From positions 6,819 to 70,818 of the forward strand of contig JAOZHP010000077.1 in assembly GCA_026014815.1 (NCBI GenBank): DNA of 64,000 nucleotides, in the 5' to 3' direction. The notes beneath the pieces are model-generated. The model had not been told where the DNA came from and ran no database searches. It worked only from the letters and a program-made list of their open reading frames with translations. Made by a program: the position numbers and the translations under genes. This stretch comes from Candidatus Bathyarchaeota archaeon. GTDB taxonomy: Archaea > Thermoproteota > Bathyarchaeia > TCS64. Of this stretch, positions 1,244 through 31,468 are shown one piece after another (position 1 is the stretch's first letter; the number at the start of each line of letters is the position of its first letter).

Positions 1244-1768
1244 CTAGAGGTTTGAAAGGAAAGCCTTCAAGGCGTCAACCTCGAAGACTCCAACATGAGC
1301 CCTAATAATCTTGCCCTCCTCATCAAGGACAAAGTCTGCTGGGCTCTGGGTCTCCCTTCCCTCATAGTCACCATGAAGGACACCGGCTTTCTTTGCTTCC
1401 TGTGCTCTCCTGAGCAGCTTAATCCCTGTGCCTAAACCGAAGTTACCGACGCCGAAGTCATGATACACCTTGTATTTGCCGTTCTCGTTGAGCACCGTTA
1501 CGACGGGGAAACCCACATCCCGGTCACCGAGATACTCCCTCACGTTCTCGGGACTTGACTGGGTGAAGTAAACCACCTTCACCTCCGGGTAAGTCTCTGC
1601 TATTTCCACAAGGCTCTCGAAGTCAACCTGACAGACGGGGCACCCAAAGTACCTCCCGAAGACAAGTAACACATTACTGCCCAGATAATCACCGAGTTCC
1701 AATTTTCCCTTGTTCACTGACTCCGCGCTGATCTTTGGAGCGGCATCACCCAAATGAAGCTTGACCAT
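1244..1768 (-). CDS. Thioredoxin-fold redoxin (AhpC/TSA/TlpA-like) with a CPVC active-site motif
   Basis: VLLVFGRYFGCPVCQ is a thioredoxin-like CxxC context, and the length is right at 174 aa. It ends in TAG. Fourteen further sense codons then reach a TGA that overlaps the next ATG. Confidence 0.6.
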   Translation of the reverse strand: MVKLHLGDAAPKISAESVNKGKLELGDYLGSNVLLVFGRYFGCPVCQVDFESLVEIAETYPEVKVVYFTQSSPENVREYLGDRDVGFPVVTVLNENGKYKVYHDFGVGNFGLGTGIKLLRRAQEAKKAGVLHGDYEGRETQSPADFVLDEEGKIIRAHVGVFEVDALKAFLSNL

Positions 1769-1921: not shown

Positions 1922-2065
1922 ATGAGATTATCAAAGAAACATTCACTCGTTTTAATGATAATCTCGTTAATCGCATCCATAATTTCGCCTATTCTACACA
2001 TATATGGAGCCGAAAACTCAGTTTTGACTCCCTCCGCCTCCAATTATACCTTGAAGGAAGCGTGA
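1922..2065 (+). CDS. Small ORF encoding a signal-peptide-like sequence; possibly the N-terminal part of a frameshifted secreted protein continuing in 2062..2379
   Basis: MRLSKKHSLVLMIISLIASIISPILHIYGA is a typical signal peptide. The ORF stops at TGA and overlaps the next ORF by GTGA. Confidence 0.25.
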   Translation: MRLSKKHSLVLMIISLIASIISPILHIYGAENSVLTPSASNYTLKEA

Positions 2066-2379
2066 AACTCGATTACCCGCTCGAAGTAGACTCTACAGTC
2101 GCCAGGATAAACGTGACTCTACTCGGTGAAATCTTCGAGAACATGATAATCTTGGATCAGGATGGCGTATTACTTGATTACACTATCGACGGATCGACGG
2201 TTATTGACGTATTGGGCTCCCAGCGGGTCAACATCAGCTACTACACGACGGGTCTATCCAATAAGACAAGTGTCCTCTGGACTTTACGCTTCAACACACT
2301 AATCGAAACCCTAACCCCTCTTTCTTTTTCCTTTAACTGTAACGTTTTTTACTTGCATCCCCTGTGGGGTGGGGTATGA
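2062..2379 (+). CDS. Hypothetical protein (possible body of a secreted protein, see previous ORF)
   Basis: 105-aa ORF with a GTG start, and the frame is open upstream of the GTG. I recognise no motifs. Confidence 0.25.
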   Translation: MKLDYPLEVDSTVARINVTLLGEIFENMIILDQDGVLLDYTIDGSTVIDVLGSQRVNISYYTTGLSNKTSVLWTLRFNTLIETLTPLSFSFNCNVFYLHPLWGGV

Positions 2380-2621
2380 TTGGCTTACACCTCGTCGTTG
2401 ACGGCGTCACAGAGGAACAAGTGAACAGAGGCACAGTGGATCACATACTCAGGGAACTCCCAGAAGTCATTGACCTGAACGTACTCTCGGTGCCCCACGT
2501 TGTCGAGGGCGTCCCTGAGAACCCTGGATGGACAAGCTTCGTCATCATAGACAAGAGCCACATAGCTATACACACTTTCAGTGAAACAGACACAACCTCC
2601 ATAGATATCTACAGTTGTTAG
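2376..2621 (+). CDS. speH: Pyruvoyl-dependent S-adenosylmethionine (or arginine) decarboxylase proenzyme, SpeH-like, apparently interrupted by an in-frame TAG (homology continues to TGA at 2702)
   Basis: MIGLHLVVDGV...IIDKSHIAIHTFSETDTTSIDIYSC matches the class-1 AdoMetDC pattern GRHLxxD...ESHIxIHTWPE...IDVFTCG. The TAG sits where the conserved Gly or Trp after TC is expected. The next 26 codons (PFHTKNAVNYLKQYIQFKEI...) resemble the SpeH C-terminal helix. Confidence 0.6.
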   Translation: MIGLHLVVDGVTEEQVNRGTVDHILRELPEVIDLNVLSVPHVVEGVPENPGWTSFVIIDKSHIAIHTFSETDTTSIDIYSC

Positions 2622-3005
2622 CCCTTTCACACAAAGAACGCAGTAAACTATCTTAAACAATATATCCAGTTCAAGGAAATAACCACTCGAACAATAACCT
2701 GAGAAATGATGTAATAATGGGTTTTAAAACCACGTTATTACTTTAATTCTTATTATAACCCGAAATACGGTCTTTTTATTTATTAAACAATGAAATAAAT
2801 GGTTTTTATCATTTGAACCAGTTTTTACACGTCATTCACGTAATGTAGGCTCGTTAACAATGAAAAAAAGGATTTAGCATCTATACTCGTGGTTAATACC
2901 TGTTTTAACTCATTTTTCAAGGGTATCTCGATTAGTGGTTCAAAAACATGGAATAATACGGGGTATAGCTTTTATTTCTGGTCTCTTTACAATCATAGAA
3001 GGCTT

Positions 3006-4241
3006 ATGGAAGGTGGGTTCGGCCAGTTCGATGCGGTTTACAACATCCTCATCATGGTCGTAGTTATCACCCTCATAGCAAGGCAGATGAACTTCCCCTC
3101 CACCATCGCTTTCATCTTCGCGGGTCTCCTAGCAGCCTACGTGCCCCGTTTCCCATTACCTGAGATCTCCCCAGCCATCTTCCTGAGCTTGCTCCTACCT
3201 CCTATCCTGTTTACGGAGTCCCTCACTCTGGACATAGAGGGCCTAATAGACGACAGCGACACGATTCTCAGTTACGCCATATTGGGAACTGCGCTCATGG
3301 TCACGGCGGTAGGCACCTATACACACTACATCCTAGGACTGACTTGGATCGAGGCCTTCATGCTAGGCATAATCATAGCTCCCACAGACCCTGTCTCGGT
3401 CATCGCCACTTTCAAGCAGCTAGGTGTGATCAAACGTTTTCAGCTCATCGTAGCCGGTGAGAGCTTGTTCAACGATGGCTTCGCCATCGTCGTTTATAGT
3501 ATACTTGCTATCATTATCGAGGCGGGTGCAATCACTGGAGGAGAGGTGCTCTGGTTAAGCTTGATCAAGATGGTAGGTGGGGTGTTTTTAGGATATATCG
3601 CAGGATACATTGTCCACCTCATCTTCTGCTGGACGGATGACCCCTTCATAGAGATGCTTCTCACATTCATCGTCGCGTTCGGAGTCTTCAGGCTAGCCGA
3701 ACAATTCCACTCCAGTGGGGTCATAGCGGTAGTCATCGCCGGATTAATAATTAATTACCGGAGCAGGTCCATCGGCGGATTATCCACTCAAGGCGAGACC
3801 TCTCTCCATATCATATGGGAGTTCATCGGTTTTATAGCCTCCAGCTTCGCGTTCATATTTATCGGTGTATCAATTGAACCTAACCTCCTGCGAGAATTCC
3901 TACTCCCCATCGTTGGGCTGTCACTTTTTACGGTGGTTTTCCGGTACATAATGGTGGATCTGGTGGCTAGAATACTGGAAAGATACCGAGGCAAAAGAAT
4001 CCCAAGGAACTGGAAAATGGGAATGACCTGGAGCGGCCTCAGGGGCGCTGTATCAGTTGTGCTTGTCTTAGGCATCGCGGGTCTAGGACTCCCCAACTTC
4101 AACATCCTGCTAGCACTCACATACGGTGTTGTATTAGGCTCTAACCTGTTCCAAGGATTATCCATGCCCATCGTCGTCAACAGGCTGCGACTATTCAGCA
4201 CAAGACCCGGACCTGAACTCCAGAAAGAGAGCTCAGAGTAA
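3006..4241 (+). CDS. Na+/H+ antiporter, CPA1 family (NhaP-type)
   Basis: About 11 TM helices with CPA1 motifs LLPPILFTESLTLD and IIAPTDPVSV. Start moved to the internal ATG at 3006, since the upstream 39 codons are non-hydrophobic junk. TAA stop. Confidence 0.8.
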   Translation: MEGGFGQFDAVYNILIMVVVITLIARQMNFPSTIAFIFAGLLAAYVPRFPLPEISPAIFLSLLLPPILFTESLTLDIEGLIDDSDTILSYAILGTALMVTAVGTYTHYILGLTWIEAFMLGIIIAPTDPVSVIATFKQLGVIKRFQLIVAGESLFNDGFAIVVYSILAIIIEAGAITGGEVLWLSLIKMVGGVFLGYIAGYIVHLIFCWTDDPFIEMLLTFIVAFGVFRLAEQFHSSGVIAVVIAGLIINYRSRSIGGLSTQGETSLHIIWEFIGFIASSFAFIFIGVSIEPNLLREFLLPIVGLSLFTVVFRYIMVDLVARILERYRGKRIPRNWKMGMTWSGLRGAVSVVLVLGIAGLGLPNFNILLALTYGVVLGSNLFQGLSMPIVVNRLRLFSTRPGPELQKESSE

Positions 4242-4311: not shown

Positions 4312-4806
4312 ATGTCAGTCGCCGAGAGATTAATAATGCTCTCAGAGTTGATAGAGAAGTACGTTTTAGAACTCGAAAAAGAGTACAGGGGTTACGGTAA
4401 CGAGGTGGTCAGAGAGCTACTCGCCTCAATAACTGTGGACAGCATGAAACACGCAGGACTCTACAAGGCAGCCGCATACATAGTCGAGGGAAAAAGCCTT
4501 AGCATCACGGACTAGGAGTACGAGGAACTTGAGAAGAAACTCAAGCTCCATATACAGAACGAACAGGAGATGCTAGACGCCGCGAAGACGCTAATGGATG
4601 AAGTCAAGGACGAACGCGTCAAAAAGATCCTCCTCAAGATATATGAAGACGAGTTGATGCACTACCCATTCCTCACCAGTTTCTAGGAAATCTTCCTCAA
4701 ACGTGAGCTCATCACGGAGCAGGATATATGGGACATGCTTTTCAGGGACCTGCCCACACACGGACATGTGGCCGACCCATACGTTGGAAAAGACTATGGA
4801 GACTAA
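4312..4806 (+). CDS. Four-helix-bundle metal-binding protein (ferritin/hemerythrin-like), single 165-codon frame interrupted by two in-frame TAG codons (4513-4515, 4684-4686)
   Basis: One frame of 165 codons ending TAA. Segment 1 carries DSMKH. Segment 2 carries EQEMLDAAKTLMDEVKDERVKKILLKIYEDELMHYPFL, an ExxH/HHE-like motif. Segments 2 and 3 have no start codon or RBS of their own. Confidence 0.45.
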
Positions 4807-4938: not shown

Positions 4939-5649
4939 GTGGGCAAGGGAATCAATATTATCGCAATAGATACAGATACAGATCACGGGAAAACCATTGA
5001 ATTAATTATAGAGTCACTGGACCCTAAGATCCAAGTCACCGTTGTCACATCTAACGCTTCAGTAAAACCACTGATCGACTCTGGGACATACGACTGTGTT
5101 GTTGTAAACCGTACGGATCCTCAACAAGATGAATTCCTGTGCATTCAAGAAATCAGAGGTTACTGTGAGTTACCCATCATCTTATGCGTTAACACTGAAC
5201 TACCACAAAACGCCATTGAAGCTATCAACGAAGGGGTCACGTATTTCTCAAATGTTCCAGTGGGAAATGGACTCTACCTTAAACTCGCTGAGAAGATCAG
5301 GCATGTTGTCTCAATCCACAGGTCCGAGCAAAGAATCATGACGCTGAAACAAAAAAAGAGTCCTCGCGTCCTTGTCCGAGGGGAAAACCTCTATATCATG
5401 GATCATAATGGGGAAGCGTTGTGGGGATTAGAGGAACAATTAACGGATGACGTCGCGAGGCTGATGGAACTAGAGCTCAAGGCCATTGACTTCGTGCGTG
5501 ATAATCTCGCTGACGAGGTAACTGACTTGTCCGAGGTCCTATTGGAGTCTGGGGTTCCGGTCGAGAATATTCCTGATATTATCTATGAGGGTTACAGGAA
5601 ACTCTTTTCTTGGTTTAAGGATCTTGATTCATCTCTTGGTCAAAGGTAG
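4939..5649 (+). CDS. Receiver-like (REC) domain protein, atypical (phospho-acceptor Asp position is Asn), with a C-terminal domain of unknown function
   Basis: IIAIDTDTD...DCVVVN...ILCVNT follows the CheY-like beta-alpha pattern, but DCVVVN replaces DxxxxD. TAG stop. Confidence 0.4.
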   Translation: MGKGINIIAIDTDTDHGKTIELIIESLDPKIQVTVVTSNASVKPLIDSGTYDCVVVNRTDPQQDEFLCIQEIRGYCELPIILCVNTELPQNAIEAINEGVTYFSNVPVGNGLYLKLAEKIRHVVSIHRSEQRIMTLKQKKSPRVLVRGENLYIMDHNGEALWGLEEQLTDDVARLMELELKAIDFVRDNLADEVTDLSEVLLESGVPVENIPDIIYEGYRKLFSWFKDLDSSLGQR

Positions 5650-6830: not shown

Positions 6831-7433
6831 GATCGTGGCGTGTCTTTTCTTCATGACTTCCTCAGTGGCGCCGAGTCTGTTCATCAACTCAGCGATGATA
6901 CTGTCCAAGAATATCATGCAAGTATCCTCAAATATGGTGCCCATGGGAGCAAGTGACTCGTGTTCGCCACTCAATTGACGGCTGATATACTCTTCCTCCG
7001 CCCCCATAATCTCTCTTCCAGGCAAGAGCACAACGCCGTCACTTGTCCGGGCCAAAGGTGACTTAGACTGGCTTGTGACTGCCTGAACAAAGGCCCCGAG
7101 GGTCTTCGCCTTCTCCGCCACCATCAGGGGCAGCGTGGTGCTCCCTGAACCCGAGATGACTAACACCAAGTCCCCCTCGCCCACGTTCGGGGTGATTGTC
7201 TCCCCTAGGACATAAACGTTGAACCCCAAGTGCATAAGCCTCATAGCAAAAGCCTTACCCACGAGACCGCTTCGACCTGCCCCCACGATCATGATCTTGC
7301 TGCCCCTTGTTCGCACGTCGATGAGCGTCTGGATCACCCCTGAAATCTGGTTCTGATCAAGCTCTCGTAGCGCCATCGAGATTCCTGAGAGAAGCTCCTC
7401 GTATGCCTGAACCCAAAACTCCATACGAATCAA
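6825..7433 (-). CDS. SIS-domain sugar isomerase, 6-phospho-3-hexuloisomerase (PHI/HxlB)-like
   Basis: MIVGAGRSGLVGKAFAMRLMHLGF...LVLVISGSGST is an SIS-domain phosphosugar-binding pattern, and about 200 aa is typical of PHI. Confidence 0.6.
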   Translation of the reverse strand: MIRMEFWVQAYEELLSGISMALRELDQNQISGVIQTLIDVRTRGSKIMIVGAGRSGLVGKAFAMRLMHLGFNVYVLGETITPNVGEGDLVLVISGSGSTTLPLMVAEKAKTLGAFVQAVTSQSKSPLARTSDGVVLLPGREIMGAEEEYISRQLSGEHESLAPMGTIFEDTCMIFLDSIIAELMNRLGATEEVMKKRHATIE

Positions 7434-14365: not shown

Positions 14366-15298
14366 CTAGTGAACATACTGCACACTGAAAGGTATGTTCA
14401 ATAAAACATCGATGTACACATAGAGAGTACTCCGAACTCTCGTGTATGAAAGATCTTCCAGAGACTCTAATACCGGCAGTTCCTGCTCTTCAACCAGATC
14501 TTGTTCGACTCTATCCCTAACAGTCTCAAGCGATTGCCAGAGCCTTTCATTGGTGTCTGCGTCAGTCAACCCAGTAATTGACTCAAGTTCCCTCTCCCAT
14601 ACCGTAAGAAGCACCTTGAGAAATTGGTACCCATAATCCGAGCTTATCCATTCTGAAGTATGCTTCGCTGTTTCAGCTACACTATGGAATATTATATCAA
14701 TGGACTCGGAGGCTTCTCTCTTAATTTCCTCGATCTGCCGGGTCTCAATCATTAAATCGAGGTTATCTAAAGGAACTTTTCCCGCCGTTACAAGGGAGAT
14801 GAGGTGTCTCTCGTTCTCTATCTTTTTTGCCTGCTGTATGGTTGCTTTTACCTGTCTCCAATCCACTATTCCATCCAGTTGGCTTATTATTTCTAAGAAC
14901 TTTTCGACAAGCTCCAAGTTCAAGGTAACTTGGTTCAAGTAGGCGTTCCTGTAATCATGGAATTCTCTGGTTGCCTTCTCGAACTCACTTCTCCGTCGTT
15001 CAATATCCTCATCGATCAGTGATTTTATCTCTGTGAGCTTTTCAGCGGTTCTGGTGAAGAAAACGATCTCCTCCTCAACCTCATCAGTCATGATTTTTAT
15101 CACCAATCTACGCGATTTTGCGTACGGCTTGTGGCCAGTGCTGAGCTCAGTGCTGATTGTGTCAGTTAGCGGTTTCTCAATCTGAATTATTCTTTTTTTC
15201 CCCAGAAATCCCTTCTCAACTTCAACCTTCACAGAGTCCTCTGATACCGATAAGTAAGCGACCTTTCCTTGGGGGAGCTTCCCTATTACCTCAGGCAT
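14366..15298 (-). CDS. Hypothetical alpha-helical/coiled-coil protein, translationally coupled to the upstream 778-aa membrane protein
   Basis: 310 aa, charged and Glu/Leu/Ile-rich. Its ATG overlaps the upstream TGA (ATGCCTGA). Confidence 0.5.
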   Translation of the reverse strand: MPEVIGKLPQGKVAYLSVSEDSVKVEVEKGFLGKKRIIQIEKPLTDTISTELSTGHKPYAKSRRLVIKIMTDEVEEEIVFFTRTAEKLTEIKSLIDEDIERRRSEFEKATREFHDYRNAYLNQVTLNLELVEKFLEIISQLDGIVDWRQVKATIQQAKKIENERHLISLVTAGKVPLDNLDLMIETRQIEEIKREASESIDIIFHSVAETAKHTSEWISSDYGYQFLKVLLTVWERELESITGLTDADTNERLWQSLETVRDRVEQDLVEEQELPVLESLEDLSYTRVRSTLYVYIDVLLNIPFSVQYVH

Positions 15299-17627
15299 CC
15301 GGGTTCCTCCTCAATGAGTTCGTTGTCTCCTCAAGGGTTAACGGTGAGTACGTGGTCCTCTGGTACATTTTGAGGTACTCTCTGCCATAATTCTCGGCGA
15401 CACCCAGCTCATCAAGTTTGACCTCTTCCTTTAGGTCAAGTATCCTTGATATCTTCTTTGAGAATACTGGGTAGTTTAGCAGCATCTCCTTTCTCTCGTT
15501 ATAGTACTCGATGGTGTCTACTGCTTCGTCGATATAGCTTAGTACTCTGTAAAGGTGGTTGATTATTTCGTCTATTCCGTATTTCTCATAGTTGTTTATG
15601 ACCTCAAGGCTGTGGTTCATTCGCTCTGTGAGAGTTATGTTACGGTTCCACTCATAGTCTTCACGTGGTAGAAGCAGATTGATGTTAAACTCCAAGTCTT
15701 GTAGATGGTAGTATAGGAGCCCAATGATCCTTCCAACAACCGTAACAGTGGAGAGAATCGTATCTCTGATAAGTATGACCTTCAAGACCTTGAGGTTCTC
15801 ATCTCCTTCAGTAAAGTCCCTCTTAGAGACTTTCTCAGAGAGACTTTGTATGAGCTCAAACTTGTCTCCAAGTAGTGGCAATAGACTGCTCTTACGTTTA
15901 CTCAGAGTGACAATGGTCTCCACGCTATCGTTGATTGGCCTTGTTGCATTCACGATATCCGCCGAATACTGTTTCTCCCAGTTCTTCAATGAAACCAAAA
16001 TAGCCTTGATGATTACCCATGGCTCATCCTCATCCTGTTTCTGACGGGAGATCTGGAGAGTTGCACTGTCTCTTGGTAGATTAGGCTCAAAGAGACTGCT
16101 GATGATCTCATAGATCTTGTCTGAGGTCTCGATGAGTCGCTCCACTAGTATCCTGCCGAACTTCACGATGTTCTTGATATGCTCCACTTTTTCTTCAAGA
16201 GGTGCATCTACTGCGAGATCGGGTACCTCCGGGGCATCGACTTCTAACCCAAGTTCCTTGATCTCACCCGCCGCTTCCAAGTACTCGAACTTGATCTTGA
16301 TGTAATGATCACGGAGAGCCACATCTAGTTGAGTTTCAAATGAAAGGGCTTCCTCTCTGAGTTCATTGTATATTCTTCTTATCCTCATATCTATGTCATC
16401 TAATTCAAGGACGGTGGTCTTGGCACTGCGGTTGATCTCTCTCAGCTCATCCTCAACGATATTCATCCTCGATACAATATCCATAAAGTTGTCAGGGGTG
16501 GGATTACCCATGCTTTCAGCGATCTCCCTGTACCCTACAATTAGCTCAATCAACGCATCGGTTTCCGTGATAAGAGCATCAGACCTTTTCTCTCTGACCT
16601 CCTTCAGGTCTCCCACATACTTGGCTAAAGCAACAGGCGCAGAGAATAATATTGTGAAAGTTGTTGAACTGATCAGGATCGGTCGATCTACCATTGCTTG
16701 AAAAGCTAATGGAGCTTGCAGATAATCGATTGCCACGAAGAAGACGATATTGGTTAATGCGGCCGCGAATATTGGGAGAACGTAGACCATCGCGTCCACG
16801 TACATCCCGGGCATATTGGCTTTTTTGATTGGGTCAGGCATGTTCATGTTCAGTATAGCTATAGCCGAGATGAGCCCAGACATGATAATGAAGAAAAAGA
16901 CCATTCCCGGTAACGAGTTAATGAAGCTTTCAAAGGCCAATCTTTCCCCATTGAATATAATTTCTGATGGCGTGATGCCTGTGATTGTATTGAACACTTT
17001 TTTCAGGGTCTCAAGGCTAATAGTTGGGAGAGATGCCTGGATATCTGAATAAATAGTGTCTAGGGGCGTGTACAATGGCGGCATCATTTCTACCTCATAA
17101 GTCTTGAGGAACTGCATCACCTGTAGAGGGATGCTTATTGCCGCGTAGTAGATGAACGTGTACGCGATACCTTTCCCCTTGTAGATGGTAGCAAAGACCA
17201 GTATCAGGGGAATAGCCAGATAGAACGTCGACCTGAAGAACAGTAAGGACACGGCGATTATCCCCATATCCATAGCGATTATCTGGAGGTTGTTATTAGC
17301 GATCACTGGGCAGATAACAAATGGAGCTATCATCAATGCCATGAGGATGGTGTTTCTTAAAGGACTCTCAATGAGTTGAAAAAACCCGATTCTTGAAAGA
17401 TGATAAAATAGTCCTAGAACGATTATGAGGCTACCTGACATCGCACCATAGGGCATGTCCTTATAGATGGAGTAAGCCACGAGGAACGCTACAACTATTG
17501 GTAAAGGAGAAGGAAGTAAGGGTATCAGCGTGAACCCGGCGGCCATACTGATCATGGTTACTATAAAGGTGATTAGCTTCCCCGTCTGTTCGCTGAAGTC
17601 CCCGTCCATGAAGAGTCCGAAACTCAT
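15291..17627 (-). CDS. Large polytopic membrane protein (about 9 TM helices, roughly 360 aa) fused to a cytoplasmic coiled-coil domain of about 400 aa; function unknown
   Basis: The N-terminal half is strongly hydrophobic with multiple helices. The C-terminal half is rich in Glu, Lys, Leu, Ile and Arg with heptad-like periodicity. Likely leaderless: a TATA-like box sits about 27 nt from the ATG. Confidence 0.55.
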   Translation of the reverse strand: MSFGLFMDGDFSEQTGKLITFIVTMISMAAGFTLIPLLPSPLPIVVAFLVAYSIYKDMPYGAMSGSLIIVLGLFYHLSRIGFFQLIESPLRNTILMALMIAPFVICPVIANNNLQIIAMDMGIIAVSLLFFRSTFYLAIPLILVFATIYKGKGIAYTFIYYAAISIPLQVMQFLKTYEVEMMPPLYTPLDTIYSDIQASLPTISLETLKKVFNTITGITPSEIIFNGERLAFESFINSLPGMVFFFIIMSGLISAIAILNMNMPDPIKKANMPGMYVDAMVYVLPIFAAALTNIVFFVAIDYLQAPLAFQAMVDRPILISSTTFTILFSAPVALAKYVGDLKEVREKRSDALITETDALIELIVGYREIAESMGNPTPDNFMDIVSRMNIVEDELREINRSAKTTVLELDDIDMRIRRIYNELREEALSFETQLDVALRDHYIKIKFEYLEAAGEIKELGLEVDAPEVPDLAVDAPLEEKVEHIKNIVKFGRILVERLIETSDKIYEIISSLFEPNLPRDSATLQISRQKQDEDEPWVIIKAILVSLKNWEKQYSADIVNATRPINDSVETIVTLSKRKSSLLPLLGDKFELIQSLSEKVSKRDFTEGDENLKVLKVILIRDTILSTVTVVGRIIGLLYYHLQDLEFNINLLLPREDYEWNRNITLTERMNHSLEVINNYEKYGIDEIINHLYRVLSYIDEAVDTIEYYNERKEMLLNYPVFSKKISRILDLKEEVKLDELGVAENYGREYLKMYQRTTYSPLTLEETTNSLRRNPDA

Positions 17628-17639
17628 ATCCCCAACCTC

Positions 17640-17665
17640 AGTACCTTGATATTATATAACCCTAA
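17640..17665. promoter_or_regulatory. Palindromic TATA-like element (TTGATATTATATAAC) in the 49-bp divergent intergenic region; candidate shared promoter for two leaderless divergent transcripts
   Basis: ATATTATATAA is centred about 26-27 nt from both the minus-strand ATG (17627) and the plus-strand GTG/ATG (17677/17680). Confidence 0.45.
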
Positions 17666-17676
17666 GTGCGTGATCT

Positions 17677-18801
17677 GTGATGAGCCTAAGCGAATCTGAC
17701 TTAAAACTGCTTGTAGCTTTAAAAAAACACATTAACGCAATCACACCAGATCTCCCTGACCGGGCAGTCATCACTGTAGGCCAGTACACCCTAGATTCCC
17801 TTCTTGACTCTCCTTCATTGCAGGAGGAGGGCATAACTGATCTCATCCGGGTACATCATAAGAAGGATTTGGAACATAAAACAGTAGAAATTGATCCCGA
17901 GTACAGCATCGAGGTTGATACTCTATACGAGCCACATTACTGGTTTGACCTCCAAGAGAACCTTGACAGCGATTCCTTCGAAGAGCACGTGAACAAGCGT
18001 ATTTACGATTACCACGACGAGATACTCACCCTCGTAAACGTCTCTGAGGGTTCATCCTCGGGACTATTTCCAATATTACACAAGATTCTCGCCGAGAAGG
18101 GGAAGAACGCACTCGGCGTCGCCGTGTTTCCATCAATGGGCCATAGCAGCGACGCATTATTCAACGCGTTTGCATCCGTGGGTATGATGAACCTTAACAA
18201 TTCAGCTCCCGTACTGCTGCTTGATCAGGGAAAGCTAGAGGATTTCTCGGGGGTGCACCGGGAGGGCGAGCCCCTGCGAGACATGGAAGTTATTGACTAC
18301 ATGGTTGAGCTGCTTCTCGATAAGAGAGGATTCGTTAGGGATATCTACAAGATCTCAAAGAACTTTAATATCAAGACCTTCTCGGCGTTGATGGCCACTG
18401 GTTGCAGCCTTGGCATCTACGAGAATTTCCGAAATATTCTCGAGATCACCCTTGAGCAGCCATTGATGGACTTTGATATCAGCACCGCCACTATGATCTA
18501 TGTACTGGTCAAGGCGCCCATCTATTACCGGGACGAGTTAACGAAAGGGGACATCGAGTTTGAGGTCTCCCAGTGGCTAATGGACTCCCTCGGGGTTGAT
18601 ATTCCCCAGATATGTGAACCCATCTTTGTGGACGAGTTCGGTGACAGGATAGACATCATGATCCTTGTTGGAGGGTTCGATACAAAGAAGATCTACGGGG
18701 ACATCTACCGGAGGATCGAGAGGTTCAGCAACATGAACCTAGAGCAGGGACTCTACGATAAGGAACTTTGGGAAAAAATTAAGAAAGAGTTACTTGGTTA
18801 A
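17677..18801 (+). CDS. Degenerate FtsZ/tubulin-superfamily protein (GTP-binding motifs lost, T7-like loop retained)
   Basis: AVITVGQYTLDSL sits at the G-box position. VAVFPSMGHSSDALFNAFASV aligns with the FtsZ T4 signature (FIAAGMGGGTGTGAAP) but with Gly replaced. QPLMDFDISTATMIYVL aligns with the T7 loop (NVDFADVRTVM). Convergent with the intact FtsZ-like gene, stop codons overlapping. Confidence 0.45.
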   Translation: MMSLSESDLKLLVALKKHINAITPDLPDRAVITVGQYTLDSLLDSPSLQEEGITDLIRVHHKKDLEHKTVEIDPEYSIEVDTLYEPHYWFDLQENLDSDSFEEHVNKRIYDYHDEILTLVNVSEGSSSGLFPILHKILAEKGKNALGVAVFPSMGHSSDALFNAFASVGMMNLNNSAPVLLLDQGKLEDFSGVHREGEPLRDMEVIDYMVELLLDKRGFVRDIYKISKNFNIKTFSALMATGCSLGIYENFRNILEITLEQPLMDFDISTATMIYVLVKAPIYYRDELTKGDIEFEVSQWLMDSLGVDIPQICEPIFVDEFGDRIDIMILVGGFDTKKIYGDIYRRIERFSNMNLEQGLYDKELWEKIKKELLG

Positions 18802-21467
18802 CTACTGGCTTCCCTTTGTAGCTCGGCGAGGACCTCATTTATGTCTCCCTTGTGCTCAACGAGGAAGCTTCTGCTTAGGCCGCTCTCGAACTCGCTGGCC
18901 TTTCGGTTGAGGCGCTCCATCTCATCGTAGGGCACCAAGTCCTCCATAGTTCCACGACCAGCGACTACCACGATCCTGATTACCCATGGATCACGGCACT
19001 CGACTATCCTGACGGTGATAGTTTTAGATACGTCGCCTGTTACGTAAGCCGCTAGAGCCGTGTTTAGCTCCTGAGTCAAGTCCTCGTCCCAGAGACCAGA
19101 GGGTGTTTGGACGGTGACCCAGAGGTAGTCGCTGCGGTACGTGCTCTTCATTCCCATGATGTTGGGGGTTCTATAGATCCTAATGATGCTTCGCATATAG
19201 TCCTTGAAGTGGTCAACGTCAAGGATCTCTGTGAGGATGCCTTCTCTGTTTAGTTGGTCCTCCTGTTCTGCTAGGATCTTGTAGATGATCTTGCCCTGCT
19301 CATCGCCTGTAAGCTCCGTGGTTCGCTCGTAGAACCTGTTGGACTTTATGATTCGTTGAAGCTTTTCTTGGTAGACTTCACTGAGCTCCAGCACGGTGTT
19401 GAGCTTTTTTCTGTACTCGCTTGTGACCTCTAGCTTCTTGGTGAGTTCCTGATAGAACTCGACTATTGTGTCGGTGCTTCCTATCTGGACGTTGAAGTGC
19501 ATCTCTTCCTCGGTGATGGTCCTGAGTTCACGCTCTACGTCCCTGAGCTTTTCTTTGGCGTACTTTTTCTTACCGAAGAGGCTGAATCCCTTGGACTCTT
19601 TCTCATACTTGTTCCTATCGAATTCCTTGCGCTTCTTCTTCTCCTCAAGCCGTATTAGCTCGTTCTCTAGGTTCTCCCTCCTGTTACGGAACTTTATGAT
19701 GAGTGCCTGAAGGTATGTGAGATGCTCATCGATCATCTTGATCTCGTCGCTGCTAGGCTTGATCATGAGCTGTAGCAGGTGATAGATGGTTGTAAGCTCA
19801 GCCTTCATGTCTTTGAAGTTGACGTTAAGCTTCTCTTCCTCCGGCAATATCTCGTAGCGTCTCATGATGGCATCGATAAAGTGCCTGTTCTCGTTGTAGA
19901 GCCGAAGGATGGTGAGTGCCGTCTCTGTGATCTCAGTGATGTTCATAAAGTCATCGATAAGCTTCTTCTGACGGATTGTGAGCTGCTGGCTGCTAGGCAC
20001 AAGCTGTTCAAGCCGTTCAAATATGGCTGTCTTACGCTCTATGAACTCGGGGTGGGTCCTAGACACGTTCCTGAGTAGACCTTCAAGGCTATCATAGGGG
20101 GTCACCTCGTCTCTGTGAAGGATGAGCTTCGTAACACTGTCTTCGATGGTTCCTTCCGTTGAAACGAGCTTGATGGTATTGATGAACTGCTGACTCTCGT
20201 CGATCCATTTATTAATCTGATCTTCGATGCCCCTGACGTAGAGGCTATAATCCTCGTCGAATCTTGGGCTACTGTGGATGAGAGACTCTATTTTGTCCTC
20301 GAACTCCTCGGCGTTGTAGGCGTTGGTCTTGATGAGGTAGTCCATATAGATCTCGCTGACTTTCACACGTTTCAACTCGAGGACGCTCTGCAGCTTCTCC
20401 AATACCTCTAGTTTCTCTTTCCTTATCTCTGCCAGTTGCTGCATCTTCTCTAGGTTGGACTGGAATGCCTCGACGTACGCGTCCACAGGGTAGTTGACTT
20501 TGATCATGCTGAGTGTGTGGATGGTATTATCGGTGAGTCCTACCTCTGTGCCTATTCCGCTCATGAGATCGGCCATGTCAAAGTCCATGAGTACATAGAT
20601 CATCTCAACGATCATCTTATCGATCTCGTCACGGGCCGCGAGAATGTTCCCTGTCTTACTGTACGCTGGCATTAGCGGTAGGAACATTACGCTGTTGAAC
20701 GGGTTCCTGTAGACTTCTCCTAGTCCATTTGTGATGACCTCGTTCTTCTCCCTGTTGATAAGCAGGCTTAACTCGTTGATGCCGTTGAAAGCTGAGTAGC
20801 CTTTGGCTGGCGGATCGTCTCCCGGGCATGGTAGGATACAAAGTCCCATGATGGGTACGCCGCTGCCAACAGACTGTCGGAGATGCCTAGCGAAGTCCAT
20901 GATCATCCCTGAACCTGTTCCCCCTCCGAGGCCGAACACGATCATGATGATAGGGCTATTTATGCTGCTCAGGGCGTTGTCCTTGAACATGTTGGTGAAG
21001 CTCTTGATTATGCCCAGCTGGTAGTAGTTGAGGTTGTAGATGGCCTTGGCGAGGCTCCTGCGTCTGCCTGCACCTCCTGCTAATGGCGGGATGGCCACGG
21101 TGTTTGGCAGCCACGCGTTATACTCTTTGAGCTTTATGTCCTCGTTTTCAAGGTGTTCCTTGAACTTGTTCTGGACGAAGTCGAACATGGCTTCCGCGGA
21201 GGGGAACTTTACGCTTTTCGCGATTACGCTTAGGCGTTCCTGTGGAATGCCTTTACGCCTCATCTGTTCTAGGATCCGGTTGTAGGTGTCGTTTAGGTTT
21301 TTAATGTCTGGATCCGCGATGTCCATGGCTAACATGCTGAGCCTTGTGGCTCCGCTGTTCAGTAGCTCCATGGTTTTATCTGTTTTTAGGAAGGTTTCCA
21401 CTACGTTGGTTCCTGCTCCTCCGAGGCCAACGAGGTGGATGACGCTTGAGTATCCAAGTTCCGACAT
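18798..21467 (-). CDS. Divergent FtsZ-like GTPase (N-terminal about 320 aa) with a roughly 570-aa C-terminal coiled-coil extension (889 aa)
   Basis: T1 loop HLVGLGGAGTNVVE, T3 loop GGAGRRR, T4 loop IVFGLGGGTGSGM, T5 loop PIMGLCILPCP, T7 loop LMDFDMADLMSGIG, in FtsZ order. The remainder is Glu/Lys/Leu-rich heptad sequence. Its ATG abuts the TAA of the upstream gene (TAAATG). Confidence 0.7.
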   Translation of the reverse strand: MSELGYSSVIHLVGLGGAGTNVVETFLKTDKTMELLNSGATRLSMLAMDIADPDIKNLNDTYNRILEQMRRKGIPQERLSVIAKSVKFPSAEAMFDFVQNKFKEHLENEDIKLKEYNAWLPNTVAIPPLAGGAGRRRSLAKAIYNLNYYQLGIIKSFTNMFKDNALSSINSPIIMIVFGLGGGTGSGMIMDFARHLRQSVGSGVPIMGLCILPCPGDDPPAKGYSAFNGINELSLLINREKNEVITNGLGEVYRNPFNSVMFLPLMPAYSKTGNILAARDEIDKMIVEMIYVLMDFDMADLMSGIGTEVGLTDNTIHTLSMIKVNYPVDAYVEAFQSNLEKMQQLAEIRKEKLEVLEKLQSVLELKRVKVSEIYMDYLIKTNAYNAEEFEDKIESLIHSSPRFDEDYSLYVRGIEDQINKWIDESQQFINTIKLVSTEGTIEDSVTKLILHRDEVTPYDSLEGLLRNVSRTHPEFIERKTAIFERLEQLVPSSQQLTIRQKKLIDDFMNITEITETALTILRLYNENRHFIDAIMRRYEILPEEEKLNVNFKDMKAELTTIYHLLQLMIKPSSDEIKMIDEHLTYLQALIIKFRNRRENLENELIRLEEKKKRKEFDRNKYEKESKGFSLFGKKKYAKEKLRDVERELRTITEEEMHFNVQIGSTDTIVEFYQELTKKLEVTSEYRKKLNTVLELSEVYQEKLQRIIKSNRFYERTTELTGDEQGKIIYKILAEQEDQLNREGILTEILDVDHFKDYMRSIIRIYRTPNIMGMKSTYRSDYLWVTVQTPSGLWDEDLTQELNTALAAYVTGDVSKTITVRIVECRDPWVIRIVVVAGRGTMEDLVPYDEMERLNRKASEFESGLSRSFLVEHKGDINEVLAELQREASS

Positions 21468-22442
21468 TTAGCTTCTCTCCGCCTCTTTAAGTCGATCATT
21501 TATCTCTTGCAGTCTTAAAGCTAGGTTTCTGTCTATACGGGAGGCCCTTGACTGGAGTGCCTCCAGTTCTCTGATCTGGTCCTCCATGATCATTGTGATG
21601 AATCCTGCTCTGGTTCTGGTCCTCATGAATAACACAAGTGAGAGGATAAATAGGACCAGTAGTCCTCCCACCGCTGGAATGAAGTATTTCTCTTGGAAGC
21701 TTGGCCCGGTCTGTATAGGCGGGGCCTCTACTTCCAGTGTGTTCAGAAGATCCATGGCTGAGTCCACTAGTCCAAACTCTGCCTCGTCTTTGGCTAATGC
21801 AACAAAGTTCTCGTATAGCTGGATGTACGCAGGGTCTACATCGCTTTCTATATAGTCCTGCAGCTCCACTTCCTTCTGGCTGAGTATGAACTGGTAGTCA
21901 TCTATTTTGCTGTCTATGACATGTATCTCTATCTCGTCATAGATGCTATCAGCTGGGCCTATGAGCATCAGTATCGTCAGGTCCACGGGCCTGTGGAGAG
22001 CCACCGTTGTCCCCGCCGACGTTGTGAGGTCCTTGTCTATCTTTCCGATGATCGAGATCTCGTAGACCCCCATTGTGTGATTAAACATGATTCTTCGTTC
22101 TGATGGGTTAAAGTCATCAGTGAGTGGTAGGTCGATGGTCTCTATCTCCCAGAAGACCTCCTCTGACTGCTTCTCAATGGAGTTTGAGAGAATTAGTTCA
22201 AGGACGGCGTTGTCTACTGTTTGCCTCACGTTCAGGGTGAAGGTGAGGATATACTCGTCTCCCGCGAGTACCGGCGCGTTTTGAAGTAACTGACCGGTGT
22301 CTGATTGCCATGCCAGAACCATCTGGTTTGTGGCGTAGTTCTTCATGGTGAACTCCTCTATCCATGGTAGAGTCTGTCCCCTGACACCCATCGTTGGTGT
22401 GAGAAGAACAACTATGATTATGACAACGCAAAGTTTTCTCAC
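21468..22442 (-). CDS. Single-pass membrane protein: signal peptide, roughly 240-aa extracytoplasmic domain, TM helix, cytoplasmic coiled-coil tail; first gene of the operon with the FtsZ-like GTPase
   Basis: MRKLCVVIIIVVLLTPTMGVRG is signal-peptide-like. AVGGLLVLFILSLVLFM is a TM helix. The tail IMEDQIRELEALQSRASRIDRNLALRLQEINDRLKEAERS is coiled-coil-like. TAA immediately followed by ATG of the next gene. Confidence 0.55.
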   Translation of the reverse strand: MRKLCVVIIIVVLLTPTMGVRGQTLPWIEEFTMKNYATNQMVLAWQSDTGQLLQNAPVLAGDEYILTFTLNVRQTVDNAVLELILSNSIEKQSEEVFWEIETIDLPLTDDFNPSERRIMFNHTMGVYEISIIGKIDKDLTTSAGTTVALHRPVDLTILMLIGPADSIYDEIEIHVIDSKIDDYQFILSQKEVELQDYIESDVDPAYIQLYENFVALAKDEAEFGLVDSAMDLLNTLEVEAPPIQTGPSFQEKYFIPAVGGLLVLFILSLVLFMRTRTRAGFITMIMEDQIRELEALQSRASRIDRNLALRLQEINDRLKEAERS

Positions 22443-27217: not shown

Positions 27218-28207
27218 ATGGCTATCTTGCCTGATGAGTATGTCCTAGGGGTTGATGGTGGGGGGACTTGGACTCGAAGCATCATCATGAGACTAGACGG
27301 GACAGTGTTGGGGAAAGGCAGCGCTGGGCCCTCAAACCCATTAACCATAGGAATGGATGCGGCTCTAGAGAACATCACTCAAGCAGTGGACGAAGCTAAG
27401 AGTGAAGCAGATGTAAAATCATTCAAAGCCAGCAGGCTAGGCCTCGCTGGGGGAGCCCGATCAGTCCTTGGAGACAGGATGGTGGAACGTCTCCCCGAGA
27501 ACTATGGGGATACAGGGATCATCTCTGACACTGAATCCGCGTTGGCTGGCTCCACAGGGTGTAGGCCCGGGGTCGTGGTGATAGCTGGCACGGGTTCTAA
27601 CGTGTATGGAAAGAACGCACAAGGCGAGGAGGCGAAGGCGGGGGGATGGGGATGGCGCCTCGGTGACGAGGGAAGCGGGTACACGATAGGCAAGAACGCG
27701 ATAATAGCAGCATTAGAGTATCATGATGGAAGAGGACCATACACGACGCTCAAGGAGAGCATCCTGAGATACCTCGAAATCAAAGACATTGAGGAAATCA
27801 TCGACTGGACCTATGACTCTGGACGCGAGCCCAGACACTTTGCTTCACTGGTCCCATTAGTTAAGGAAGCTGAGAAGAGTGGAGATAAGGTCGCCGCTAA
27901 GATCATGATGGAGGTTGGCGCCCAGCTAGGAGGTATCGCTCAGGTAGTAGTAAGGAGACTAGGACTAACGGGAGCTTTTCCTGTTGCGTATGTCGGCGGT
28001 GTATTCAAGCAACCCCTTTCCTACAACGTTGCATTTGAGGAGAAGGTTCGCCAAGTAGCCCCGGACTGTCAAATAATTGAGCCGTTGTTCTCTCCCACCG
28101 TTGGCTCGGCTCTTCTAGCCCTAATAGCTATGGGGATTGATGTAGATGACGACCTCCTCAACAACGTAAAGACGAGCTTCACTGGTAGAGGTGACGTGAA
28201 TGAGTAG
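27218..28207 (+). CDS. BadF/BadG/BcrA/BcrD-type ATPase sugar kinase (MurK/N-acetylglucosamine kinase-like)
   Basis: LGVDGGGTWTRS (ASKHA phosphate-1), IAGTGSNVYG (phosphate-2), GWGWRLGDEGSGYTIG. Overlaps murQ by 8 nt. Confidence 0.6.
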   Translation: MAILPDEYVLGVDGGGTWTRSIIMRLDGTVLGKGSAGPSNPLTIGMDAALENITQAVDEAKSEADVKSFKASRLGLAGGARSVLGDRMVERLPENYGDTGIISDTESALAGSTGCRPGVVVIAGTGSNVYGKNAQGEEAKAGGWGWRLGDEGSGYTIGKNAIIAALEYHDGRGPYTTLKESILRYLEIKDIEEIIDWTYDSGREPRHFASLVPLVKEAEKSGDKVAAKIMMEVGAQLGGIAQVVVRRLGLTGAFPVAYVGGVFKQPLSYNVAFEEKVRQVAPDCQIIEPLFSPTVGSALLALIAMGIDVDDDLLNNVKTSFTGRGDVNE

Positions 28208-29099
28208 AACAACTGAGCAACTGAACCCTGCATCGAAGGGGATAGACGAGAAGCCCATCAGGGAGATACTTGAAATCATCAACACCGAGGACTCCAAGAT
28301 AGCTGAAGCCATCAGAAAGGAGCTACCACAGATCGAGAAAGCGGTGGAGGCAATAGTGAACACTGTCAAGTCTGATGGAAGAGTCTTCTTAATGGGCGCA
28401 GGGACCAGTGGCAGACTGTGCATACTTGAGGCGTCCGAGATACCCCCCACCTTCGGCATCGACCCCGAGGTCATTCAGGGGGTAATAGCGGGCGGACTTG
28501 ACGCCCTACACGGGTCAGTGGAGACAGCGGAGGACCAATCCAATAAGGCTTGGAGCGATCTCCAGAGCCGAGGCTTCAACCAGCGTGACCTCCTAATGGC
28601 TCTATCAGCCTCAGGAAGTACTCCCTATGTGCTCGGCGCAGTGAAAGCCGCCAAAGAAATCAAAGCTAAGACCATAGGGGTGGCATGCAACAAGGGCACT
28701 CCACTGGGAGAGTTAGCTGACATCTCGGTCGAGCTTATAGTGGGTCCCGAGGTGGTGGCTGGCTCAACACGGATGAAGGCTGGGACTGCCCAGAAGATGG
28801 TGCTCAACATGATGAACACCTCAGCTATGGCAAAGCTGGGTCTTATCCATGATGGCTACATGGTGGGTGTTCAGGCATCCAACATTAAGCTCATGGACAG
28901 AAGCACCCGCATAGTGTCCAATATCGCTGAGATTAGCTATGAAGAAGCTCGAAAAGCCCTTGAGATCACCAAATATGACGTACGTGTTGCTTTACTCTAT
29001 GTCATGACAGGAATGACGATAGACGAGGCGAGAACCGCACTGAGCGACTGGAGGTCAGTAAGAGATGTTCTCAGGAAGAAAGGTGGCAATGTTGAGTAA
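28200..29099 (+). CDS. murQ: N-acetylmuramic acid 6-phosphate etherase (MurQ, SIS domain)
   Basis: GRVFLMGAGTSGRLCILEASEIPPTFG and SASGSTPYVLGAVKAAKE match MurQ-conserved blocks. About 300 aa. Confidence 0.85.
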   Translation: MSRTTEQLNPASKGIDEKPIREILEIINTEDSKIAEAIRKELPQIEKAVEAIVNTVKSDGRVFLMGAGTSGRLCILEASEIPPTFGIDPEVIQGVIAGGLDALHGSVETAEDQSNKAWSDLQSRGFNQRDLLMALSASGSTPYVLGAVKAAKEIKAKTIGVACNKGTPLGELADISVELIVGPEVVAGSTRMKAGTAQKMVLNMMNTSAMAKLGLIHDGYMVGVQASNIKLMDRSTRIVSNIAEISYEEARKALEITKYDVRVALLYVMTGMTIDEARTALSDWRSVRDVLRKKGGNVE

Positions 29100-29147
29100 C
29101 GTGAGGGGATATTATTATTTCTACAAGGCAGAAAGGAGGCATCTGCC

Positions 29148-30314
29148 CTGAGAGTCACGCCCGGAATAGATGTACTTCTAAAGGACCCGGATAAGCACCT
29201 CGGGCAAGCTAACATAGGTCTCGTCACCAATCCGACTGGTGTGACCAACGGGCTTGAGTCCACCATCGACGCGTTGCACAGATGCTCCAAGGTAAATCTT
29301 AGAGCCGTGTTTGGGCCTGAGCATGGAGCGAGAGGCGACGCGCAGGACGCTCTCAAGGTGTCTGGCCACGTGGACGCGTACACAGGGCTCCCTGTTCATA
29401 GCCTGTATGGTGATCACGAGAAGCCTACCGTTGAGATGCTGGAAGGCCTCGAAGCTCTGGTTTTTGATATACAGGATTGTGGCGCCCGGTTCTATACCTA
29501 TGTTTCAACTCTCACTCATTGCATGGAGGCTTCAGCAGAGCATGGCATACGTGTTGTTGTCCTTGATAGGCCCAACCCTTTGAACGGAGACGCGACCGAA
29601 GGCAACATATTGAAACCCGGTTTCAGGTCCTTCATCGGGTTACACCCAGTCCCTATCCGTCACGGCCTAACTGTCGGTGAGCTTGCCCAGTTCATCAATC
29701 AAGGTATCCAGTGTGATCTTCACGTGGTCGAGATGGAGGGATGGAGACGCGGAATGTGGTACGACGAGACCAGTTTACCGTGGATTCAGCCCAGCCCTAA
29801 CCTGCCCTCCCTTGACACAGCGACAGTGTACCCCGGCACATGCTTCTTCGAGGGAGTGAACGTCTCCGAGGGTAGAGGAACAACGCGGCCCTTCGAGTAC
29901 ATCGGTGCTCCATGGATCGATGGCAGAAGCTGGGCAGAGACCCTCAACAACACAGGTCTCCCCGGGGTGTGTTTCCGGAGCAGCCACTTCACCCCCACCT
30001 TCTGGAAATTCAAGGATGAAAGATGCGGAGGCGTACAGGTCCACGTAGTTGACAGGAAGTGTTTCAGACCAATGGAGACGGGTCTCCACCTTTTAACGAC
30101 GTTAATTCAGCTCTACCCGGACACTTTTAGCTTCAACGAGTCATCCTACGATAAGCGGCGCCACTTTGATCTCCTAGCAGGTACAGACACTCTAAGAGCA
30201 GACCTAATGGCCGGTGTCTCAGTCGAGGAGATCATGGCCTCCTGGATGCCTGAACTGGAGGAATACCGGGAGAAACGTAAAGAGCATCTGCTCTATGGAG
30301 GCGACGATGAATGA
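29148..30314 (+). CDS. namZ: DUF1343-family exo-beta-N-acetylmuramidase (NamZ/YbbC-like); start is non-canonical (CTG 29148 with AGGAGG 8 nt upstream, or ATA), as no ATG/GTG/TTG is available
   Basis: GIDVLL...IGLVTNPTGV, FGPEHGARGDAQDA, FDIQDCGARFYTYVST, LDRPNP and GRGTTRPFEYIGAP are all DUF1343 blocks in order. The frame is closed by the murQ TAA 16 codons upstream, and the first GTG (29241) lies inside a conserved block. Confidence 0.75.
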   Translation: MRVTPGIDVLLKDPDKHLGQANIGLVTNPTGVTNGLESTIDALHRCSKVNLRAVFGPEHGARGDAQDALKVSGHVDAYTGLPVHSLYGDHEKPTVEMLEGLEALVFDIQDCGARFYTYVSTLTHCMEASAEHGIRVVVLDRPNPLNGDATEGNILKPGFRSFIGLHPVPIRHGLTVGELAQFINQGIQCDLHVVEMEGWRRGMWYDETSLPWIQPSPNLPSLDTATVYPGTCFFEGVNVSEGRGTTRPFEYIGAPWIDGRSWAETLNNTGLPGVCFRSSHFTPTFWKFKDERCGGVQVHVVDRKCFRPMETGLHLLTTLIQLYPDTFSFNESSYDKRRHFDLLAGTDTLRADLMAGVSVEEIMASWMPELEEYREKRKEHLLYGGDDE

Positions 30315-31465: not shown

Positions 31466-31468
31466 GAG

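Follow-up and report, generated by a model that had tools for sequence, protein, structure and literature searches.

A SpeH-like decarboxylase gene and its ferritin-like partner as a probable pair of recent nonsense pseudogenes in a Bathyarchaeota genome

The SpeH-like gene and its two in-frame stop codons

In the window (the whole 64-kb stretch of DNA that was analyzed), a gene for a pyruvoyl decarboxylase resembling SpeH is followed 1.6 kb downstream by a gene for a ferritin- or rubrerythrin-like protein. Both are interrupted by in-frame stop codons (Table 1). As read from the sequence, the open reading frame of the SpeH-like gene runs from its ATG to a TAG and encodes 81 amino acids with the C-terminus SIDIYSC; the corresponding NCBI coding sequence is MCW4049820.1. 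Alignment with homologs shows that these 81 codons hold the β-chain, the cleavage site between K60 and S61, His66, and the catalytic residue Cys81. Immediately 5′ of the start codon, a DNA alignment with three orthologous loci (L001, L004, and L003) reveals the conserved blocks AA.GTTT.T... and GGGTATG; this region probably comprises the promoter and the 5′ leader.

Table 1. Coordinates of the SpeH-like gene, its partner, and disrupted counterparts in relatives. Positions in the first nine rows are those of the window; the others are those of the named locus.
Feature	Position	Strand	Remark
Upstream region	2340..2375	+	aligns with orthologous loci (DNA alignment with L001, L004, L003)
SpeH-like pyruvoyl decarboxylase, first 81 codons	2376..2618	+	Pfam PF02675, 43.1 bits
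First premature stop, TAG, codon 82 (Lys82)	2619..2621	+	AAG in orthologs
26 codons past the TAG (PFHTKNAVNYLKQYIQFKEITTRTIT)	2622..2699	+	C-terminal helix and last β-strand
Second premature stop, TGA, codon 109 (Arg109)	2700..2702	+	CGG/CGT in orthologs
Apparent remnant of the ancestral 3′ end, GAA ATG ATG (E-M-M) TAA TAA	2703..2717	+	ortholog ends ...TREII*/...TREVV*
Partner gene, ~164-aa ferritin/rubrerythrin-like, probably inactivated	4312..4806	+	72% identity to L004 ortholog
In-frame TAG, partner gene codon 68	4513..4515	+	V, L, I or M in orthologs
In-frame TAG, partner gene codon 125	4684..4686	+	Leu (CTG) in close orthologs
L008, disrupted pair	3010-3496 and 1369-1716		
L006 and L007, partner gene with internal deletion	L006 2411-2723; L007 947-1259		
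L021, partner gene	6891-7370		TAA and two small deletions
L018, partner gene	1989-2477		single TAG, codon 45, K/Q/R site

Homology does not end at the TAG. The Pfam profile AdoMet_dc (PF02675) matches the 81-residue ORF over profile positions 16–77 of 107 (43.1 bits; gathering cutoff, 25); when the TAG is read as X, the score rises to 59.7 bits and the match extends over positions 16–104. The 26 codons after the TAG have positive coding potential. A database search returned the exact 81-residue protein and 79 homologs besides, nearly all of them 102–133 residues long and 47–69% identical, and most span 99–100% of the read-through product. No relative in the protein database, which included JGI, ENA, and Logan, was more than 69% identical. 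At the column of the TAG, Lys is found in 71 of the 79 homologs (otherwise Q, R, or M), and all three ortholog DNAs that were fetched have AAG. A TAG at codon 82 occurs in none of the 79 database homologs and in none of the 50 Bathyarchaeia orthologs from the GTDB (~130 sequences in total); in all 50 of the latter, the gene is uninterrupted.

The TGA, in turn, occupies a column that is Arg in 78 of the 79 homologs and also in the AdoMetDC of Aquifex (2III). The tandem TAA that follows E-M-M is, as we read the sequence, the original terminator of the gene. With a TAG at codon 82 and a TGA at codon 109, the window gene thus contains no ORF for the complete fold.

These data bear on a preliminary description of the same DNA, which had reported an in-frame TAG inside a SpeH-like gene with homology beyond it. 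The extension of the profile match across the TAG and the ~130 matching orthologs bear this out, and the homology exceeds chance by a wide margin. The same description had taken the TGA as the normal end of the gene, and it is instead premature. A derivation of the TAG from TGG, also put forward there, gives way to AAG → TAG, as the orthologs have AAG. A Gly had been expected at this site in SpeH homologs; that is correct for distant, canonical SpeH proteins only, the orthologs having Lys.

Fold and family of the SpeH-like protein

Residues D59-K60-S61-H62, H66, and C81 are invariant across the homolog alignment (DKSHI...H...S.D..SC), and they align with the ESH...H...TC motif of 2III and 1TLU. 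Given the invariance of DKSH, self-cleavage was placed between K60 and S61, where it would leave a truncated α-chain of 21 residues (S61–C81), rather than the 13 previously stated. An AlphaFold2 model of the protein (pLDDT 95.9) features a helix at residues 86–96 and a strand at 99–107, both of them past the TAG. According to this model, the 81-residue product would be missing one of the fold's two helices and the last β-strand, and it is very likely inactive. The model agrees with the earlier suggestions that the truncated product is without essential structure and that the 26 downstream codons resemble the C-terminal helix; to this helix it adds the strand.

How does this protein compare with characterized members of the family? 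The class 1 (SpeH/SpeD-type) AdoMetDC proenzymes from Aquifex aeolicus (2III) and Thermotoga maritima (1TLU/1TMI) have PF02675 in common with it. They also have the same small α-β fold, the profile aligning over residues 2–112 with 2III, and the same self-cleaving Ser in an x-S-H context, catalytic His, and Cys (..Y/F-[ST]-C). The window gene differs from them in its two stops and in its match to TIGR03330 (the SAM_DCase_Bsu equivalog), and the Bathyarchaeia-specific clade differs in its Lys-Ser cleavage site and in the Lys that follows the catalytic Cys. Both the window gene (53.7 bits) and the intact ortholog at L004 (52.5 bits) score below the TIGR03330 cutoff of 75.65; for this reason we use the label “SpeH-like,” and AdoMet is not established as the substrate. 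The crenarchaeal arginine decarboxylase (Sulfolobus SSO0536) is reportedly derived from AdoMetDC, a finding attributed to Giles and Graham in 2008. This archaeal (TACK) paralog has the same pyruvoyl fold, and it illustrates that proteins of the AdoMet_dc family in TACK need not use AdoMet. No second AdoMet_dc gene was found in the 64-kb window.

The location of the TAG invites the question of whether the shortened protein could still work. The stop comes after Ser61, His66, and Cys81, and the promoter-proximal region is still conserved; the 81 residues might be active alone or with a subunit, or a low level of near-cognate readthrough might suffice. Arguing against a functional truncated or conditional gene, the 27 missing residues form a core helix and a β-strand in the confident model and are present in every ortholog. 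Among the 80 database matches, just two are shorter than 100 residues: the window protein and an 86-residue fragment. Nor could the C-terminal portion be supplied separately: codons 83–108 contain no in-frame ATG, GTG, or TTG and therefore cannot be a separate gene, and a split gene was rejected on these grounds. We regard retained function in truncated form as extremely improbable.

The partner gene and the locus

The partner gene aligns in one frame throughout with its ortholog at L004, at 72% identity over 163 residues, and its terminator is a TAA (4804–4806). GenBank carries its N-terminal 67 residues, i.e., the portion before the first TAG, as the hypothetical protein MCW4049822.1 (NWE89_08810). 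The Rubrerythrin match of the protein is sub-threshold, and no Pfam family scores above threshold; the motifs DSxKHAxLY and DExxHH are invariant.

The orthologous loci are arranged in the order 328-residue protein, AhpC, SpeH-like gene, Na+/H+ exchanger, 164-residue gene; the latter is followed by small genes, PfkB, a RadA-like gene, and CarS, an order shared with related Bathyarchaeia. In the window, the exchanger separating the broken genes is itself intact, with 409 codons, 75% identity, and no internal TAG. A scan of GTDB species representatives found the SpeH-like gene at 50 Bathyarchaeia loci (L009–L058). In ~31 of these 50, the 164-residue gene is located 100–2500 bp downstream of it, with or without the exchanger in between. 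The SpeH-like and ferritin-like genes form a pair that is conserved in Bathyarchaeia. Their conserved pairing suggests a shared, accessory function, and we infer that the two genes work together.

Two other aspects of the locus deserve mention. Between AhpC and the SpeH-like gene, where relatives have GFO_IDH_MocA, MFS, and Macro genes, the window has ~600 bp (1789–2379). An ORF with signal-peptide-like character (1922–2065) seems to go on in another frame (2062–2379) into the conserved region upstream of the SpeH-like gene; for the whole (1922–2379), neither a Pfam match nor a homolog among the fetched loci was found. It looks like the remnant of a frameshifted gene that was truncated by a deletion. 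Downstream of the partner gene (4939–5649), there is a gene for a 236-residue protein with a weak match to the response-regulator receiver domain (19.6 bits, below cutoff). Counterparts of this protein are encoded at the same place in L008, L016, L017, L029, and L039 (28–36% identity), and none is present at the locus in L001 and L004.

Constraint and evolutionary rate

Substitutions at conserved sites were counted in both broken genes. At sites that are at least 95% conserved, the SpeH-like protein has three changes, M34L, G39V, and G54S (3/28 vs. 20/2217 in the other homologs; Fisher p = 0.003 for these substitutions alone). When the stop at the conserved Arg is counted as well, the tally becomes 4/28, the worst of the 80 sequences. 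In the partner gene, 7 of 89 clade-invariant sites are changed; one of the changes, H118Y, falls in the DELMHH motif, from which none of the 26 other sequences in the comparison departs. The same lineage's intact exchanger served as a control. With changes at 7 of 191 invariant sites, it ranks second among 16 sequences, so part of the invariant-site signal is attributable to the isolation of the lineage. Compared with this control, the excess in the broken genes is only about two- to threefold and is non-significant alone; we treat it as supportive only. Other decay in this copy of the gene had been named in the preliminary description as a test that could overturn its reading, and such decay is evident: the second stop, M34L, G39V, G54S, and the broken partner.

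The overall rate of change is unremarkable. In a neighbor-joining tree, the root-to-tip distance of the window sequence is 0.333 (mean, 0.363), and accelerated evolution was rejected. Both broken genes are 64–72% similar to their orthologs, and the intact neighbors are 59–93% similar to theirs. The constraint data suggest a recent inactivation: with no indels yet and little extra divergence, the event would be recent.

Disruption of the pair in relatives

The window is not the only place where the pair is damaged. At L008, the partner gene has two frameshifts, and the SpeH-like gene has been deleted down to ~7 codons (ILGLHLD) between the Macro gene and the exchanger. The partner genes of L006 and L007 have an identical internal deletion (approximately residues 15–74), found in two independent runs and assemblies. 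Those of L021 and L018 are also interrupted (Table 1), and at L015 the exchanger is present and the partner gene absent. Frameshifts and deletions of this kind are damage that no suppressor tRNA could mend. In view of these independent losses in related lineages, the pair appears to be dispensable and to have been lost repeatedly.

For a single small pair of genes, losses across the other MAGs are unusually frequent. The L008 exchanger (1717–2916) is the most divergent at otherwise invariant sites (13/197), and that of the window is second (7/191). Constraint on the exchanger may depend on the two flanking genes; alternatively, both lineages may simply be isolated.

The lesions in relatives also speak to the quality of the data. 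Could the stops be errors of sequencing, assembly, or consensus, the true codons being AAG and CGN and the stops representing faulty base calls or a minority allele? The window comes from a MAG of a species that was sampled once, and all of its protein clusters have a single member; independent confirmation is thus lacking. However, an artifact would require four stop-making errors in two linked genes, with the coding sequence in the rest of the 64 kb intact, and the same two genes have unusual amino-acid substitutions too. Further, the lesions in relatives are real and come from independent assemblies, the deletion common to L006 and L007 being identical in two runs. An artifactual origin of the stops is, in our estimation, very improbable.

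TAG usage and tests for recoding

TAG is a frequent terminator in the window, ending 17 of ~53 credible genes (32%). Reading on past these terminal TAG codons yields only short extensions or leads directly to the start codon of the following gene. In the 31 long ORFs of the window (15,584 codons), no internal TAG was found, and a window-wide scan detected coding signal both before and after a TAG in the SpeH-like and partner ORFs only. Two sets of same-frame neighbors, PfkB with the RadA-like gene and NagA with AnmK, were considered as TAG-interrupted genes and rejected; each of these genes has its own start. For comparison, the share of TAG among terminators has a median of 5% in Pyl-positive archaea (range, 1–27%) and is 22% in Pyl-negative ones (PMC12626013); the authors of that work do not consider TAG usage a reliable predictor of Pyl.

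Searches for decoding machinery covered the whole window and a protein database. ARAGORN and Rfam detected no tRNA and no RNA family in the window, and hence neither a local pylT nor a suppressor; the 64 kb also proved free of pyl genes and of methylamine methyltransferase genes. A PylRS profile was built from sequences of M. mazei, M. alvus, and D. hafniense; the M. mazei query had matches of 100% identity among the database entries. Among the best 120 of 3299 matches to this profile, no named one was from Bathyarchaeota.

We also asked how often TAG should arise by chance. The two broken genes are rich in GAG, AAG, and TTG, and TAG accounts for 39–47% of the single-step nonsense routes in them (up to 73% in the orthologs at L004). 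That three of the four nonsense codons are TAG is therefore expected; from the route fractions, we estimate a chance probability of roughly 0.2–0.3. An excess of TAG among the nonsense codons was rejected, as codon composition already provides 39–47% TAG routes.

It is against this background that amber suppression must be judged. Some Bathyarchaeota encode pyrrolysine machinery (PylRS; PMC9630628), which makes a pyrrolysine hypothesis legitimate. Were a suppressor tRNA, whether Pyl-tRNA or another, to read the TAG codons at some efficiency, synthesis of the SpeH-like protein would proceed to residue 108, its partner would be full length, and the TGA would amount to a tolerated shortening by four residues. 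Such a reading accommodates the fact that three of the four in-frame stops are TAG and lie in well-conserved genes without frameshifts, with conservation after each TAG as high as before it and an overall evolutionary rate that is not raised. A replacement of Lys by Pyl would be conservative, and the TAG of the L018 partner gene falls on a K/Q/R site. It does not account for the TGA at an Arg that is 99% conserved, nor for the replacement of invariant residues such as His118 of the partner. The TAG is common to no ortholog, it is not over-represented relative to mutational opportunity, and frameshifts, deletions, and a TAA destroy the same genes in relatives. The lack of internal TAG codons in the long genes, a share of TAG terminators (32%) beyond the range of Pyl-positive archaea, and a window devoid of tRNA, Rfam families, and pyl and methylamine methyltransferase genes likewise argue against it. 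We consider amber suppression unlikely.

The known pyrrolysine genes (mtmB, mtbB, mttB, and the incidental TAG genes of Methanosarcina) are similar to the window genes in that they have an in-frame TAG with homology beyond it. In true Pyl genes, however, orthologs share the TAG, which in the methyltransferases is located in the active site. The TAG described here, by contrast, is found in one genome only, is joined by a TGA on an invariant Arg, and occurs where TAG terminates a third of the genes. Somewhat less probable still than suppression as such is a useful decoding of UAG in the window's lineage, and perhaps in that of L018, despite the third of genes that end in TAG. We are equally doubtful that the pair is a hotspot of sense TAG codons (three here and one in L018) from which the proteins are still made. 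If true, amber suppression in an archaeon so rich in TAG would bear on the tolerance of ambiguous stop codons.

Probable inactivation of the gene pair

From these data, we conclude that the SpeH-like and ferritin-like genes are probably a pair of recent nonsense pseudogenes. In the SpeH-like gene (2376–2717), two point mutations, AAG → TAG at Lys82 and CGN → TGA at Arg109, would have arisen. Translation would end after Cys81, giving a product without one helix and the last β-strand. In the same genome, the partner would have been inactivated through two TAG mutations. Once one member of the pair, or the need for the pathway, was gone, the other member would have been free to drift. Presumably no protein is made beyond the stops, which are themselves directly observed, as are their locations with respect to orthologs, the synteny, and the independent lesions in relatives.

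Several lines of evidence lead to this conclusion. In comparison with orthologs at the syntenic locus, the stops are premature, as in a pseudogene. The TGA on an Arg that is found in 78 of 79 homologs means that amber suppression alone would not rescue the gene, and a pseudogene is favored. The two stops in the partner, together with the TAG-free genes nearby, favor a pair of pseudogenes. On the other side of the ledger, all four lesions are substitutions to stop codons and none is an indel, which counts against decay, as neutral decay would normally bring several percent of other changes along with two nonsense mutations. The normal root-to-tip rate and a similarity to orthologs like that of intact neighbors also count against decay, and the in-frame TAG of L018 and the Pyl machinery of some Bathyarchaeota count against the pseudogene reading. 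Ordinary prokaryotic nonsense pseudogenes are comparable in having stops at conserved codons, more than one lesion, a co-decaying partner, and losses in sister lineages; the window pair is unlike them in that indels are absent to date and additional divergence is slight. Of the three candidates offered in the preliminary description (readthrough or recoding, an edited or suppressed codon, and a recent nonsense pseudogene), the last is thus the one we favor; recoding is not supported.

This reading has consequences for annotation. GenBank lists MCW4049820.1 and MCW4049822.1 as ordinary proteins with no pseudogene mark. Both MCW4049820.1 (“S-adenosylmethionine decarboxylase,” 81 residues) and MCW4049822.1 (67 residues) should be marked as pseudogene fragments, and metabolic reconstructions of the window's MAG should leave out the SpeH-like decarboxylase. 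The phenomenon is a familiar one, of which this is a new instance; a mildly noteworthy by-product is the recognition of a conserved but repeatedly lost pair of decarboxylase and ferritin-like genes.

Other features of the window

Two gene clusters elsewhere in the window were also noted. The first (27218–32659) is operon-like and, according to Pfam, encodes a BadF/BcrA-type (GlcNAc kinase-like) ATPase, a MurQ-like SIS protein, NamZ, a NagA-like amidohydrolase, and AnmK. NamZ is an exo-β-N-acetylmuramidase and AnmK an anhydro-MurNAc kinase. This gene content fits a salvage of bacterial cell-wall sugars, with Bathyarchaeia as putative scavengers of peptidoglycan. In the second cluster (14366–22442), an 889-residue tubulin-like protein (Pfam Tubulin_2 and Tubulin GTPase domain; GGGTGSG) is encoded amid other large proteins; its neighbors of 778, 374, 324, and 310 residues have no Pfam match. 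This cluster may be an unusual cytoskeletal or membrane-remodeling module.
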